Positions 13,700-33,127 of a stretch of DNA of 43,384 bases are shown piece after piece. Under the pieces are notes generated by a model, which did no database searches, had not been told where the DNA came from, and saw nothing but the letters and a program-made list of their open reading frames with translations. The position numbers and the translations under genes are program-made. Location: IMG/VR virus record IMGVR_UViG_2925908680_000005, positions 1 through 43,384 of that record; one strand, given 5' to 3'. Position 1 is the first letter of the stretch; the number at the start of each line of letters is the position of its first letter. Source of the stretch: a virus. Lineage: Duplodnaviria; Heunggongvirae; Uroviricota; Caudoviricetes.

Positions 13700-13711
13700 G
13701 TGACATGTCAC
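13700..13711. repeat. palindrome GTGACATGTCAC (copy 1 of 3; 14-mer TGTGACATGTCACG)
   Basis: identical 12-bp palindrome also at 30851-30862 and 33116-33127. Confidence 0.7.
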
Positions 13712-13714
13712 GAC

Positions 13715-14128
13715 TTATAAAGATGACTGATATTTTACAACTCTGTTCATGGCATCTTTTTTCACCGAGCTGATATCAGTTCTTATTTTGGCTTCGTCAT
13801 TACTGTTTATCATGCTATTAACTTTTTGCACTGACATGCCGTTTCTTTCAGCCATTGCACATACAGCAGCATCGTATGAAGAACTCGCTGCGATGGATAT
13901 CACCTTGTTACACTCAAACACAGCACCTTCAGCAATATCAGATGCCGATGATGCTGGCTTGGTATAAGTCTTGACGTAGTGATCAATACAACTATCCTTC
14001 GCCGTCTTGGCAAGAGAAAAATCCATTTTAACTTTGTCGCAATATGCCTTATCAACACCGTCATAAACATCATAGGATGTCGAGCAAGCGGATATCAAAA
14101 ATACCGATAACAGCAATAATTCCTTCAT
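13715..14128 (-). CDS. small secreted lipoprotein of unknown function (moron candidate)
   Basis: 137 aa with signal peptide and lipobox (LLSVFLISAC); four Cys in mature part; AT-rich; own terminator. Confidence 0.55.
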   Translation of the reverse strand: MKELLLLSVFLISACSTSYDVYDGVDKAYCDKVKMDFSLAKTAKDSCIDHYVKTYTKPASSASDIAEGAVFECNKVISIAASSSYDAAVCAMAERNGMSVQKVNSMINSNDEAKIRTDISSVKKDAMNRVVKYQSSL

Positions 14129-14137
14129 TGTTGTTCC

Positions 14138-16612
14138 TTATTGCGGAGTGACATCATGAGGTCGCCACCAGTATGTCTGGTTAAACTCTTTCTTCGAACG
14201 TTGCTCCATTTTACGCAAATAGCCTGGTGAAAAATACTCCTGCATCTGGTTAAAGATCATATGATCGAGAGCCGCCTTCAAGTACCAGAGATTCGCACCT
14301 GGCATCAGCCCCTTCCCCAGCTTAACCAGATCACCACCAGTCTGCTCATTCTTCCCTTCCACAGCATTTAACGGTATGCCCTGAGCAATCTTCACTATGT
14401 CATCAACCAGACCAGCTACCGGGCCAAGCATCGACGCCAGCGCGCCGCTCCCGTACCTAGTGTGGTCAGAGAAAAGAAAATCACCGTACAACCCAGCCCC
14501 GCCACCTTTTAAAAATGCATTTATCCAGAATTTAACCATGTGGTCACCGGTCATTTCCTTTGGATTTCTCCCATTAATAAGATCAGTAATCTGCATGGAA
14601 AGAGCACCAAGCATGGTTGTGCTTGCTAAAAACGTTGCTATATATGCCGCACGCCCACCAGCAGACGGCATCCCCATAGCTCTATGCCAGTGACGCATAA
14701 CTACCGAGATAGGGAACGATTTAAACAGGAAAACACTTCTCGTTAATTCACCTTTCCATGTTCCACGCTGAATACCAGAACCGGTTATCAGTTGCTCACG
14801 TGCTCCCGGTGTAATAACAGCCATATCAACTTCTTCAGTTACGGCACCGAGCAGTTTACGCATTGCCTCAAATTTCACGCGTTCAGGCTCACCAAGATGT
14901 TTAACTGCTGAATCAGGAATACGCATAATGCTTTCCGGTGTCAGCACCGTATTATTACCGTTCCCCCAGTCCTCCTGTTGCGCCAGCTTCCATACGCTCC
15001 AGTCTGTGTCAGTAATCCCTTTGCTTTTCAGGATACGAAAATCAGAGTCATCGAGGCTACGAAGGTCTGGTGTCCGTGACACTACTTCTCCCAGGCTTCC
15101 CATCATGGTTACGCCATAGGCGCGCTTGTGCGCATCTGACCATGCTGTAAGCCCACTGGCACGCATTACCGCCGTTGCCGCCCAACGAGATACAGACGGC
15201 CCCATATTATCCATCGCCCAGCGGTTAACGCTGCCAAGTAGAGATCCCATCGCCAGACCAGCGCGGCGCGCCCGCGCAAGTTCTGTACGGTTCGTTGGGT
15301 CCATAGCTTCAAGCTGGTTGCGGAATAACTGGTTCATTGGAAGGTTGGTAACCTTCGCAGACAGATACATGGTTCCAAGATCAGAGAACGATGACAGCAA
15401 CGCGGATCCGAGTCTGCTGGCAACCAGCCAGTTGCGGATATTGTCAGACCATCGCGCGATGTGCGGATTCGCTACAGGCTGTGTCTTTCCGGAAATAAAG
15501 TTGTACAGATTCTCTGTGTTGTTCGCCAGCCGCTCGACTTTACCGGTTTTACTCGGGTTAGCTGTTGCCGTTTCTGCCTTCACCTGATCAAGAAGAGAGC
15601 GGAAAACATGATCGGGGTTTGGGCCATATGTTTCCACCAGTGCAATATCTTTACTGATACCTTCCAGGTGACCGACCATGATTTCCCATAGAGAGCGATC
15701 GCCATAAAGTTGCTGATATTGCAGATAGGAATCTGCATCTTTGAAATGTATCTGTCGTGATGCATTACCACGGTTAGCACGTGCGCCGGAAATTCGCATT
15801 CCGGTATCAGTAAGCTTATTCAGCCCACCAGTAGCGATCGTGTTATAAGCCTCTCCAAGAAATGCAGACAACTCGGCATCGTTCATCAGTTGTCCATCGG
15901 CTCGGATATAATATTTGCGATCCAGCTTACCTATAACATCGCTAACCCACTTATCCTTTGATACCGCCCCAACCTTTTCCATAGAATGATGTTGAGGGAT
16001 CCCCCAGTTTTCGAGATAGCCAATGTCCCCACCAGCATCATTAAACCGGCGGCGCAGTAGCTCTGTCACTTCTCTCCACGCCTTAGCACCTTTTCTTGCT
16101 TTAGCATTGCCAGTATTTTGCCCTCGCATTTCATATACCAGGTCACGCACGCCCGCTTCATCTTCAAACAGACCAAAAAAGCGAGGATCAACTGCTTCGA
16201 ATGCCTCCTGCAATTGACTCAATGCATAATCACGGGTGGCTTTTGTTCTGGATTCAACAGAGAGGAAATTCGATTTACCGTCTGCATTAAAAGCTATAGT
16301 ACGGTTAAGAGCGCCAAGTTTCCCATCAGCCCCTTGATAGCTATTGATAAATTTATCCAATCTCTGACGCGCGGCTATAGTGAGAGCCACACGACGTTTC
16401 TTTAATGCCGCTTCTCGCTGTAATTCTTCAGATGCCAATTGTGCTGCACGATATAGCCGCTCTGATTCGGAAAGTTGTCTCCATGACATCGGGTCATCAC
16501 GAGCAATGGAGCGCATATTTCGATAAATGCGGTCTTCAATGTTCTGTATTTCTCGCGCCGTTAACGTGCGCTGCGCCGCCTGCTGGACCGCTTGTATACA
16601 TTCCTGTCTCAT
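14138..16612 (-). CDS. large internal virion / DNA-ejection protein
   Basis: 824 aa in virion module between tail tubular genes and tailspike; position matches T7 gp15/gp16-type proteins. Confidence 0.45.
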   Translation of the reverse strand: MRQECIQAVQQAAQRTLTAREIQNIEDRIYRNMRSIARDDPMSWRQLSESERLYRAAQLASEELQREAALKKRRVALTIAARQRLDKFINSYQGADGKLGALNRTIAFNADGKSNFLSVESRTKATRDYALSQLQEAFEAVDPRFFGLFEDEAGVRDLVYEMRGQNTGNAKARKGAKAWREVTELLRRRFNDAGGDIGYLENWGIPQHHSMEKVGAVSKDKWVSDVIGKLDRKYYIRADGQLMNDAELSAFLGEAYNTIATGGLNKLTDTGMRISGARANRGNASRQIHFKDADSYLQYQQLYGDRSLWEIMVGHLEGISKDIALVETYGPNPDHVFRSLLDQVKAETATANPSKTGKVERLANNTENLYNFISGKTQPVANPHIARWSDNIRNWLVASRLGSALLSSFSDLGTMYLSAKVTNLPMNQLFRNQLEAMDPTNRTELARARRAGLAMGSLLGSVNRWAMDNMGPSVSRWAATAVMRASGLTAWSDAHKRAYGVTMMGSLGEVVSRTPDLRSLDDSDFRILKSKGITDTDWSVWKLAQQEDWGNGNNTVLTPESIMRIPDSAVKHLGEPERVKFEAMRKLLGAVTEEVDMAVITPGAREQLITGSGIQRGTWKGELTRSVFLFKSFPISVVMRHWHRAMGMPSAGGRAAYIATFLASTTMLGALSMQITDLINGRNPKEMTGDHMVKFWINAFLKGGGAGLYGDFLFSDHTRYGSGALASMLGPVAGLVDDIVKIAQGIPLNAVEGKNEQTGGDLVKLGKGLMPGANLWYLKAALDHMIFNQMQEYFSPGYLRKMEQRSKKEFNQTYWWRPHDVTPQ

Positions 16613-16617
16613 TTAAT

Positions 16618-32412: not shown

Positions 32413-33005
32413 TGATTACCATCCTGACGTTCTTTGAGTCGCTTCCTGGCTGCTGCTATGCGATCAGCAATTGTCACATTCACATTAACATCCAGACGTT
32501 CTTTGAACGCGTTGACATCAACATGCTTACCAATCAGCTCAAGGTTCTTCACCTTGTCAGGCCATTTAATTTTTTTGAGGATTGTCTCTATCGAATCCTC
32601 GTTCATGTTCATGATGGTCGATGACAGATCAAAGCCGCTAAGCGTAGTGCGCCAGATTTTCGGCCACTCGCGGATTGGCTTAAGGCTCCCATCGTCGTTG
32701 AGGATGTCGATCACGTCCATCTGGTCGATCTCCACCAGGCGCCTGAGAACGTAATCAGCACTGACGCGCATTCGTTTGTTGCGCTCCTCCATCAGCTCGG
32801 CAATCCGTTTTTGAATGCGTTCATCGCGCATCATGACACTGGCTTTAACTGCCGCTGTATTTGGGGAGAATCCTGCGTTAATCGCTGCCTGAGTCTGGTT
32901 TTCAGGCGTTTTGATGTATGACTGGCAATAAGCCTCCTGCATTGCTGTTAGTGGCTTAAATTGCGTTGATTTACGTTTATAGGTTTTAGGTTCAGCAGGC
33001 ATCAT
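32409..33005 (-). CDS. terminase small subunit
   Basis: ORF track extends to 33083, but the first 26 codons are low-complexity and overlap a repeat/operator, so the start was taken at the internal Met pair (MMPAEPKTYKRK). Confidence 0.6.
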   Translation of the reverse strand: MMPAEPKTYKRKSTQFKPLTAMQEAYCQSYIKTPENQTQAAINAGFSPNTAAVKASVMMRDERIQKRIAELMEERNKRMRVSADYVLRRLVEIDQMDVIDILNDDGSLKPIREWPKIWRTTLSGFDLSSTIMNMNEDSIETILKKIKWPDKVKNLELIGKHVDVNAFKERLDVNVNVTIADRIAAARKRLKERQDGNQ

Positions 33006-33022
33006 AACCACCGTGGTAATAG

Positions 33023-33037
33023 TTACCGTTGTGGTAA
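33023..33037. promoter_or_regulatory. perfect operator palindrome TTACC GTTGT GGTAA at the head of the packaging/late operon, within a short direct repeat (GTGGTAATAGT x2)
   Basis: read directly. Confidence 0.55.
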
Positions 33038-33115
33038 TAGTACCATGCAAAATAAAGCCGCCATAGTTGGCGGCAGTATTCAAAACCCATCAAATTCATC
33101 ATGCATAATCTACTC

Positions 33116-33127
33116 GTGACATGTCAC
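33116..33127. repeat. palindrome GTGACATGTCAC (copy 3 of 3; 14-mer CGTGACATGTCACA)
   Basis: read directly, between the 33124 gene stop and terminase small subunit. Confidence 0.7.

Follow-up and report, generated by a model that had tools for sequence, protein, structure and literature searches.

A short inverted repeat at the 3' ends of transcription units in an epsilon15-like phage is a candidate binding site for the phrog_536 protein

The DNA analyzed here, referred to as the window, is a stretch of 43,384 nucleotides from an epsilon15/phiV10-like phage (Uetakevirus). The exact 12-bp palindrome GTGACATGTCAC occurs in it at 13700-13711, 30851-30862, and 33116-33127 and nowhere else, and at all three places it forms part of the 14-mer CGTGACATGTCACA. 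Not a single exact copy arose in 100 dinucleotide-preserving shuffles of the window, which bears out the earlier claim that three copies are beyond chance. Site 1 (13699-13712) carries the 14-mer on the minus strand, so that the plus strand there reads TGTGACATGTCACG. It lies 2-3 nt past the stop codon of a minus-strand gene for a 137-aa lipoprotein (13715-14128; signal peptide, lipobox LISAC, phrog_8691), the last gene of the long late operon, and directly abuts (0 nt) the intrinsic terminator t1 that closes this operon (13675-13699, minus strand; AGGCCGCAAAAGCGGCCT then TGTTTTAA). The plus-strand neighbor at 13208-13657 matches antirepressor C-terminal families, and the lipoprotein gene and antirepressor end named as neighbors in the first-pass annotation were thus correctly recognized. 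Site 1 is syntenic in epsilon15, phiV10, Tyrion, typing phage 9, and BUCT711. The last late-operon gene is variable, as other Uetakeviruses have different genes in its place.

Site 2 (30850-30863) has the 14-mer on the plus strand and is syntenic in epsilon15, phiV10, Tyrion, and typing phage 9. It forms the 3' end of a plus-strand cargo unit located between terL and a gp3-like gene. The intrinsic terminator t2 (30867-30893, plus strand; AGCCAGCCGATGAGCTGGCT then TTGTTTT) begins 3 nt beyond the site and faces the 3' end of terL, whose stop is at 30937. The adjacency of sites 1 and 2 to terminator hairpins, noted before, therefore holds at distances of 0 and 3 nt, and at both sites the palindrome is 5' of the terminator when read in the direction of its T-tract. 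Upstream of site 2, a mini-ORF encoding MKYEFDGF* (30820-30846, plus strand) is preceded by the strong Shine-Dalgarno sequence AAGGTG, and its stop codon is 3 nt ahead of the 14-mer (30850) and 4 nt ahead of the 12-bp core (30851).

Site 3 (33115-33128) contains the TGA stop codon (33126-33124) of a minus-strand gene for a 112-aa protein (33124-33462). All three sites had been described as intergenic, which is not strictly true of site 3. Between site 3 and terS lie a mini-ORF, a terminator, and two operators. The 27-nt mini-ORF, MHDEFDGF* (33080-33106, minus strand), has its ATG 9 nt past the 12-bp core (8 nt past the 14-mer) and its stop 5 nt ahead of the stem of terminator t3 (33049-33074, stem 33074-33057, minus strand; GCCGCCAACTATGGCGGC then TTTATTTT). 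The terminator, located about 40 nt from site 3, closes the early operon upstream of terS. The two operators, with the sequence TTACC-N5-GGTAA (33005-33037), are directly upstream of terS and correspond to repressor operators in the epsilon15 record. Site 3 is about 110 nt from the probable terS start (33005/33002) and not immediately upstream of it, as had been stated. The 8-codon mini-ORF (MxDEFDGF) is conserved and a constant companion of the site, the examples in the window being those at sites 2 and 3.

To the 5' and 3' sides the palindrome is extended by flanks that were previously called asymmetric; they prove to be a degenerate symmetric extension, with a pyrimidine on the left and a purine on the right. 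From 89 distinct sites the full site is YGTGAC-NN-GTCACR, the -1 position being a pyrimidine in 171 of 178 half-sites (96%). The half-sites are invariant and show no compensatory changes, and the two central bases alone vary. Strict spacing is observed: across 1.34 Mb of homologue-encoding loci and genomes, GTGAC-N2-GTCAC occurs 94 times against an expectation of 1.3, whereas spacers of 0, 1, 3, 4, 5, and 6 yield only 0-2 copies each. A short inverted repeat with conserved half-sites and fixed spacing is thus found throughout the 89 distinct sites, as in operators, and this arrangement, with its fixed N2 and Y/R flanks, is typical of a dimeric DNA binder. A terminator-like hairpin is located 0-8 nt away in 20 of these sites.

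The palindrome is kept at syntenic places in related phages, a positional conservation whose absence, according to the first-pass annotation, would have spoken against its reading. The same three positions are occupied in five genomes (the window, typing phage 9, epsilon15, phiV10, and Tyrion), among which the cargo genes and spacers beside the sites differ; where the DNA around them belongs to conserved genes, its identity is about 80%. The gene that ends in site 3 belongs to the phrog_536 family, together with epsilon15 gp49, phiV10 p55, and N15 gp46. Independent homologue loci were collected by protein homology alone, giving 54 prophage loci across Enterobacterales. An exact inverted repeat was found within a few nucleotides of the stop codon of the gene in 40 of them, compared with a chance of about 5e-5 per locus, and in 35 the TGA stop is inside the repeat, whereas 13 have no site at the stop codon. 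What follows downstream differs widely from locus to locus and includes terS, xis, LexA-box genes, DUF2513-like genes, and terminators.

Linkage of gene and site is also observed in more distant phages. N15 and PhiR46_1 have three syntenic sites each, all with the sequence GTGACTGGTCAC, and Yersinia P2-like phages have GTGACGCGTCAC plus a partial second site nearby. Vibrio K308 has three sites, none at the stop codon of the gene and the nearest 226 nt downstream. In lambdoid, P2-like, and N15-like phages, gene and site belong to early or accessory operons, where their neighbors are xis, genes under SOS control, or replication genes. Distant homologues have clade-specific site centers, the central dinucleotide being uniform within a genome, and at the clade level the center changes in step with the sequence of a predicted β-strand of the phrog_536 protein. 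Some copies are within genes: BUCT711 has sites inside virion genes and N15 has one inside repA. In public viral contigs the 14-mer also occurs in coding regions, for example at Q-like antiterminator gene starts and in genes for a lambda-Q-like zinc finger, a CII-like protein, and phrog_2479. Within the short DNA fetched around these copies, some stretches have no phrog_536 homologue, and no complete phage record matched; such copies could therefore be sites independent of the gene or coding coincidences.

The phrog_536 protein of the window is predicted to have an N-terminal basic helix, a ribbon-helix-helix (RHH)-like core, and a cysteine-rich C terminus. Searches with it in Pfam, NCBIfam, PDB sequences, and PADLOC gave no usable match, none of the Pfam RHH models matched, and two hhalign runs for homology to MatP were negative. 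A search for the protein itself returned more than 1000 clusters, nearly all named "hypothetical". The nearly invariant Cys-91 of the family is a phenylalanine in the copy of the window, which may make this copy defective. As gene and palindrome co-occur across many unrelated phage backgrounds, the zinc-ribbon ORF proposed in the first-pass annotation as a candidate binder (33124-33465) is now the best candidate; the two travel together.

Because it is attached to the end of this gene across many temperate phages, the palindrome is most likely the binding site of a phrog_536 protein dimer, and we put the case for its being the cognate site of this protein at about even. The link between protein and site is one of association, namely the placement at the stop codon in 40 of 54 loci and the clade-level covariation. 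Lambda and P22, which lack both gene and site, fit this reading, whereas the 13 loci with no site at the stop codon, the 14-mers within coding regions, and the phenylalanine at position 91 in the copy of the window speak against it. With the TGA stop inside the site, gene and one site copy form a unit. Among the functions that had been proposed for the palindrome, that of a protein-binding site is favored by the association with the gene, whereas those of a late regulator site, a packaging site, and an RNA element found no support, as described below.

In the window every copy marks the 3' end of a transcription unit and is followed within 0-45 nt by an intrinsic terminator, a placement suggestive of a boundary or roadblock role. 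The units ended by the three sites are the early-right operon before terS, the cargo unit, which is convergent with terL, and the long late operon, which is convergent with the antirepressor operon. In the mechanism that we consider most likely, the phrog_536 protein, RHH-like with a cysteine-rich tail and made from the early operon, would occupy all three sites. The bound protein would act as a boundary element or roadblock and, together with the adjoining one-directional terminator, would keep RNA polymerase arriving from either direction out of the neighboring unit. We infer this specific mechanism tentatively, and it is clearly less probable than the binding itself. It does not explain why polymerase moving in the terminating direction reaches the site before the terminator, nor does it account for the copies that BUCT711 carries within virion genes. 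RHH repressors and antitoxins (Arc, Mnt, CopG, ParD, MazE, TacA) have palindromic operators that overlap their own promoters, whereas the palindrome here follows the gene at its 3' end and otherwise adjoins terminators where operons finish, and the phrog_536 protein has the additional N-terminal basic helix and C-terminal cysteine-rich segment. Promoter overlap of this kind was not found at the sites in the window, where only site 3 shows a promoter-like match.

An unlikely alternative is that the palindrome is the site of a host DNA-binding protein conserved in Enterobacterales and Vibrionales, MatP or SlmA-like, that the phage uses to position or organize its DNA. The SlmA site is GTGAGTACTCAC. 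The hosts of the site-bearing phages (Escherichia, Salmonella, Klebsiella, Yersinia, Pantoea, Vibrio, and Aeromonas) fall within MatP-bearing taxa, and a few dispersed copies per genome, some within genes, would suit such a role. The half-sites GTGAC and GTCAC are, moreover, identical to those of matS, the site of the E. coli Ter macrodomain organizer MatP. The matS consensus is GTGACRNYGTCAC, 13 bp with a 3-bp center (PMC6907758), so that the spacer of the palindrome is 1 bp shorter. However, N2 is strict with its 94 copies, whereas the N3 spacing of matS is present only twice in the 1.34 Mb, at chance level, and the matS 13-mer is absent from the window even at one mismatch. Whatever the genomic context, the site also accompanies the stop codon of a single phage gene, and a center that is clade-specific and uniform within a genome likewise argues against a host protein. 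Lambda and P22, which have the same hosts, contain 0 copies; neither has a phrog_536 homologue. A CRP/FNR-type site (TGTGA-N6-TCACA) was rejected for its wrong spacing, by inspection only.

With a similarly low probability, the phrog_536 protein and its sites may constitute a phage counterpart of MatP/matS, or a protein-dependent bidirectional insulator that works together with the terminators and the 8-codon leader peptide. In the former version the few sites of the phage would be bridged or organized by its own protein, or the functions of host MatP, MukBEF, or the divisome would be disturbed, in place of a role in regulating transcription. The latter version, if true, would represent a kind of operon boundary without a described example in phages.

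A function at the RNA level, in which a small hairpin at mRNA 3' ends beside the mini-ORF affects stability, processing, translation coupling, or terminator efficiency, also appears improbable. The element is always transcribed, adjoins terminators, and contains the stop codon of the gene. Ribosomes would sit on the element, given that the mini-ORF begins 9-10 nt downstream of it or ends 4 nt upstream, and in several phages the element is 8-20 nt ahead of the start codon of the next gene. Against this, the hairpin has only 4 bp and a 4-nt loop (-2.7 kcal/mol), the minimum-free-energy folds of sites 1 and 2 do not contain it, and none of the 89 distinct sites has compensatory stem changes. The outer Y/R flanks are conserved independently and are often non-complementary (C..A in the window), the orientation of site 3 with respect to transcription is opposite to that of sites 1 and 2, and Rfam gave no match at the three sites at gathering and E-value thresholds. 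The RNA element suggested earlier is therefore disfavored. The same weak folding and the lack of a T-tract exclude the palindrome itself as an intrinsic terminator; the terminators are t1, t2, and t3.

It is very unlikely that site 3 belongs to a late promoter with an antiterminator loading site, in the manner of lambda Q with PR' and tR', at which the phrog_536 protein would bind between -35 and -10 and modify RNA polymerase for read-through into terS. The likeness to lambda concerns site 3 only, where a putative regulator gene is directly followed by its candidate site, then by a promoter-like element and a terminator ahead of the late genes. The GTGACA of the palindrome is a 5/6 match to a -35 hexamer, a -10-like hexamer follows after 17-18 bp (CATGAT at 18 bp in the window, TAAATT in epsilon15 and Tyrion), and a terminator is present within about 20-45 nt. 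No other early gene lies between this gene and terS, and its product combines a putative DNA-binding part with a cysteine-rich part. However, sites 1 and 2 have no promoter, nor room for one since the terminator begins 0-3 nt after them, and the -10-like hexamer is not kept in other relatives (L103, L133, L141); GTGACA as a general -35 element was dismissed accordingly, being true at site 3 alone and not in all relatives. No Q-family match to the phrog_536 protein was found in Pfam, PHROG, or NCBIfam. In lambdoid, N15-like, and P2-like phages, which own Q or Ogr-type systems, gene and site are far from late promoters and late genes. In the window, terS has its own operator-covered region downstream of t3, probably with an extended -10 promoter, and the late operons have their own Rep-type operators. 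Together with the early or accessory placement in other phages, these operators argue against the late regulator that had been suggested.

Equally doubtful is the idea that the palindrome serves as a linker for recombination at module boundaries, at which cargo genes are swapped, and has no regulatory role. Homology between phages does break 0-3 nt from one edge of the palindrome at all three places, with a variable cargo side and a conserved terminator or gene side. Yet 14 bp is very short for homologous exchange, strict half-sites and spacing with a free center are not what homology alone would preserve, the copies within N15 repA and the virion genes of BUCT711, which are conserved coding regions, do not coincide with mosaic junctions, and no recombinase is associated.

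The remaining candidates were not supported. The palindrome shares with the Rep operator of the epsilon15/SPC32H type its nature as a repeated palindrome in the same genomes, also upstream of late operons, but it has another sequence and is never at the immunity region, whereas TTACC-N5-GGTAA, with 13 copies in the window, clusters at the immunity region and at promoters; the two are thus distinct, as was recognized at first. A cos or pac packaging site, likewise considered in the first-pass annotation, is disfavored by three copies per genome and by the cos phages N15, PhiR46_1, and Chlobot, whose terminase genes are distant from the sites. The record of phiV10 starts midway through site 3, but joining its two ends shows that it had simply been opened past the last stop codon, and a physical genome end was rejected.

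The exact 12-mer was not found in the literature searched; neither the ZX5 nor the CFT073 paper mentions the motif, and no description of the pair of phrog_536 and palindrome was found. The epsilon15 and phiV10 records annotate the neighboring terminators and not the palindrome. If the phrog_536 protein does bind the site, the two would form a regulator-operator pair that occurs widely among the temperate phages of Enterobacterales, Vibrio, and Aeromonas, with an unusual operator placement inside the stop codon of its own gene and at operon ends beside terminators. It would then become testable by what means convergent transcription units are insulated from each other in a compact phage genome and whether the 8-codon mini-ORF couples translation to termination. 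Half-sites identical to those of matS also raise the question of a connection, evolutionary or functional, with the organization of the host chromosome. Phages of the phiV10 type serve as reporter phages, and the sites bracket the slots that cargo genes occupy naturally.

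The window contains exactly three copies of the perfect 12-bp palindrome GTGACATGTCAC (13700, 30851 and 33116), against no exact copy in 100 dinucleotide-preserving shuffles, and the 14-mer CGTGACATGTCACA is present at all three sites, on the minus strand at site 1. Site 1 (13699-13712) is located 2-3 nt past the stop of a lipoprotein gene (13715-14128, minus strand, lipobox LISAC) and is directly abutted by the minus-strand terminator t1, which reads AGGCCGCAAAAGCGGCCT and then TGTTTT. Site 2 (30850-30863) lies 3' of a plus-strand unit with tRNA-Arg(TCT), two hairpins and a mini-ORF, and 3 nt past it the plus-strand terminator t2, AGCCAGCCGATGAGCTGGCT followed by TTGTTTT, faces the 3' end of terL. 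Site 3 (33115-33128) includes the TGA stop codon of ORF 33124-33462 (minus strand); the minus-strand order past it is mini-ORF, terminator t3 (33074-33057), two TTACC-N5-GGTAA sites and terS. The first-pass annotation was correct in describing three copies, two of them abutting terminator hairpins. Its description of all sites as intergenic does not fully hold for site 3, which overlaps a stop codon.

Identity is 96-97% between this region and the E. coli O157 typing phages 9 and 10, phiV10 and TL-2011b, and ~80% for Salmonella phage epsilon15 and Enterobacter phage Tyrion; these phages, like the window, belong to the genus Uetakevirus. The late genes of the window lie on the minus strand. Synteny was compared among five complete or near-complete genomes of this genus (the window, typing phage 9, epsilon15, phiV10 and Tyrion). 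All five contain exactly three palindromes (0-1 mismatch), whose locations correspond by synteny: one at the stop of the last early gene, gp49 in epsilon15 and p55 in phiV10 (site 3), one between the 3' end of terL and an antisense cargo unit (site 2), and one where the long late operon ends (site 1). At site 1 the window has its lipoprotein gene on the cargo side, where phiV10 encodes a 46-aa membrane protein, epsilon15 has gp18 and Tyrion gp19; the cargo side of site 2 consists of a mini-ORF and a tRNA in the window and of a gp50-like gene in epsilon15 and phiV10. Despite these differing cargo genes, the palindrome and its adjoining terminator are retained across the genomes. In phiV10 (locus L127, 39101 wrapping to position 8) and typing phage 9 (L005, 33969) the gene-linked copy carries one mismatch (GTGACATGTTAC, or GTAACATGTCAC on the other strand), and their other two copies are perfect. 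In BUCT711 sites 1 and 3 are retained but site 2 is missing, and virion genes contain two extra copies. The terminators are annotated in the public epsilon15 and phiV10 records, whereas the palindrome is not. As a cis element the palindrome is real and strongly conserved.

The anatomy of the element was assessed on 89 distinct sites, from loci chosen without regard to the motif. The GTGAC half-sites are fixed and the two central bases are variable, AT being the commonest centre (62/89) next to GC, AC, CT, GT and TG. Because, in addition, a pyrimidine flanks the half-site on its outer side in 171 of 178 cases, the full site is YGTGAC-NN-GTCACR; what had been taken for asymmetric flanks is a degenerate symmetric position, Y on the left and R on the right. 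The spacing is strict: GTGAC-N2-GTCAC was found 94 times in 1.34 Mb, and spacers of 0, 1, 3, 4, 5 and 6 gave 0-2 copies, with an expectation of 1.3. This pattern fits two DNA half-sites that would be recognised by a dimeric protein. The suggestion that the palindrome acts as an RNA element was not supported and is now considered improbable: it can form a 4-bp hairpin, of -2.7 kcal/mol, but sites 1 and 2 do not show this in their minimum-free-energy folds, the outer bases are frequently unable to pair (C..A in the window), no compensatory stem changes were seen among the 89 sites and Rfam gave no match at the three sites. With so weak a hairpin the palindrome was also rejected as a terminator, the real terminators being the adjoining t1-t3, and it was judged distinct from a packaging site.

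A scan of public viral contigs with the 14-mer yielded many contexts, and in the largest class the 14-mer stands at the 3' end of an ORF 33124-33462 homologue; in these contigs, homologues with a 3' palindrome have many different downstream neighbours. To remove the bias of motif selection, 54 prophage loci were fetched by protein homology alone, from Citrobacter, Klebsiella, Enterobacter, Pantoea, Erwinia, Serratia, Rahnella, Yersinia and others. An exact GTGAC-NN-GTCAC lies a few nt or less from the gene stop in 40 of the 54 loci, and in 35 of the 54 the TGA stop forms palindrome bases 2-4; the chance expectation of a site at the gene stop is ~5e-5 per locus. Gene and palindrome are followed by terS with a terminator, an excisionase, a DUF2513-like gene, a terminator alone, or an SOS box with a UmuD-like or other gene. 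The arrangement is retained in distant homologues. N15 gene 46 (34% identity) ends in GTGACTGGTCAC, and in both N15 and its relative PhiR46_1 two more copies of exactly this variant occur in syntenic positions, one within repA/primase and the other upstream of the immA antirepressor operon. Yersinia P2-like phages carry GTGACGCGTCAC at the stop and a partial second site ~25 nt downstream, and the lambda-like phage Chlobot has a single site, at the gene. In Vibrio phage K308 the three sites are all away from the gene stop, the nearest being 226 nt downstream of it; one of the three is 19 nt ahead of the start codon of terS. Lambda and P22 have neither homologue nor site.

The 12-mer was also seen within coding regions of other prophage genes (L137:232, L140:3890, L142:4164, L144:2039, L162:256, L169:3238 and 5420, L170:910 and 3039, L174:5732; also IMG/VR L012, L061 and others). 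These are phrog_2479, a CII-like/YdaT-like activator (phrog_163), the start of Q-like antiterminators (MRDMSQ) and a lambda-Q-like zinc finger. The phrog_2479 copy falls at the motif ..CDMSQ.. and is kept even where the Cys is changed to Ser. Such copies may be functional, or may arise by coincidence from the coding sequence. Prophages of Pantoea, Erwinia and Serratia have a small hairpin without a T-tract 10-30 nt past the palindrome, before the Shine-Dalgarno of the next gene (excisionase where checked). Its stem varies compensatorily (CCTG/CAGG, CCCG/CGGG, GCCCG/CGGGC) in loci L145, L149, L151, L153-L156, L158, L162, L167, L168, L171, L175 and L176.

The 112-aa product of ORF 33124-33462 matches phrog_536, labelled 'transcriptional regulator'. 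It gave no Pfam, PDB-sequence or PADLOC match, and an NCBIfam search returned nothing but a weak CopG-like match (E = 0.054). Its homologues form >1000 clusters, nearly all named 'hypothetical', and share as invariants a basic stretch AERKAAQRxRQ, the motifs RRPGRxPY and LLIRQD, and a Cys-rich tail CGKCG...C.C...CW..GWH. The centre dinucleotide of the site tracks the protein clade and varies in step with a predicted beta-strand (RKLEIVLD with AT, RRDWVLE with TG, NEIRARLE with GC), and the N-terminal basic helix and the half-sites are conserved while centre and strand change. Because only three clades are compared, this covariation is no more than suggestive. On the most probable reading, held with middling confidence, the palindrome is the cognate site of this uncharacterised family of putative ribbon-helix-helix, Cys-rich phage proteins. 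Codon 91 of the window allele (33190-33192), in the Cys-rich C-terminal segment, encodes Phe (VNSFPC) versus Cys (VNSCPC) in nearly all homologues; because a nearly invariant Cys is replaced, this allele may be impaired or defective.

The host protein MatP has a ribbon-helix-helix domain. Its site matS, GTGACRNYGTCAC (PMC6907758), has the same half-sites as the palindrome, whose N2 spacer is, however, one base shorter in every copy, and it is unlikely that the palindrome is the site of a host factor. No homology of the ORF 33124-33462 protein to MatP was detectable; by analogy, the phage protein and its palindrome may work like MatP/matS, outside that family. Ribbon-helix-helix regulators have their site at the promoter, whereas the palindrome is at the gene 3' end, an atypical placement.

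As had been noted, the palindrome is distinct from TTACC-N5-GGTAA, a different motif with 13 separate copies in the window (7381-39613, among them 10974, 11354, 30207, 33005, 33023, 36360, 36422 and 38777-39613) versus an expectation of 0.6. Copies are found in the immunity region, and others immediately precede terS, the gp3-like gene and the antirepressor operon. The epsilon15 record labels the motif as repressor operator; there it occurs in the immunity region as well as just in front of terS, gp3 and the tailspike gene. Because such operators lie upstream of them, the late operons appear to be under their own, directly repressor-controlled promoters; a TGnTACTAT extended -10 element can be read immediately past t3. 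The palindromes thus appear to lie at unit ends and not at promoters. Site 3 is at the end of the early operon, before t3; site 2 at the end of the cargo unit, before t2, converging on terL; and site 1 at the end of the late operon, before t1, converging on the antirepressor operon, which is SOS-controlled and regulated by C4 antisense RNA. Rfam places isrK and C4 antisense RNA (P1/P7-type immI control) at 11405-11586 (plus strand), upstream of this operon, which ends at site 1, and a consensus LexA box CTGTATAAATATACAG is found at 11028-11043.

At site 3 of the Uetakeviruses, GTGACA could serve as a -35 hexamer, with a -10-like hexamer at 17-18 bp and then a terminator, as for a Q-like antiterminator; this reading fails at sites 1 and 2 and in other phage types and is given little credence. 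That the palindrome is a recombination-linker sequence is similarly doubtful. For a site bound by the phage protein, a boundary function is proposed. Each of t1-t3 has its T-tract in one direction only, and a protein bound beside it would also halt polymerases from the opposite direction, so that palindrome and protein would form a protein-dependent boundary or roadblock. This hypothesis is tentative and has a rather low probability. It leaves the sites inside genes (N15 repA, BUCT711 virion genes) unaccounted for, and it gives no reason why lambdoid phages keep just the gene-linked copy, whose effect there would be limited to genes past the regulator gene.

An 8-codon ORF of 27 nt, encoding MxDEFDGF and a stop, always stands beside the palindrome, in 17 distinct contexts, in the window at 30820-30846 (plus strand) and 33106-33080 (minus strand) and also in L002, L064, L116, L132, L133, L138 and L141. 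In the site 3 type, its ATG is 9-10 nt downstream of the palindrome and 4-5 nt separate its stop from the terminator stem that follows; in the site 2 type, the stop is 4 nt before the palindrome. Because the copies differ mostly at third codon (synonymous) positions, a translated leader peptide is suggested, and a ribosome terminating on it would cover the 5' arm of the next dyad. The plus-strand cargo unit of the window (30183-30893, between terL and the gp3-like gene) comprises the tRNA-Arg(TCT) and a long structured leader and is devoid of the gp50-like (Sf6 gene 66-like) gene found in epsilon15 and phiV10, where this gene is inserted exactly at the mini-ORF ATG.
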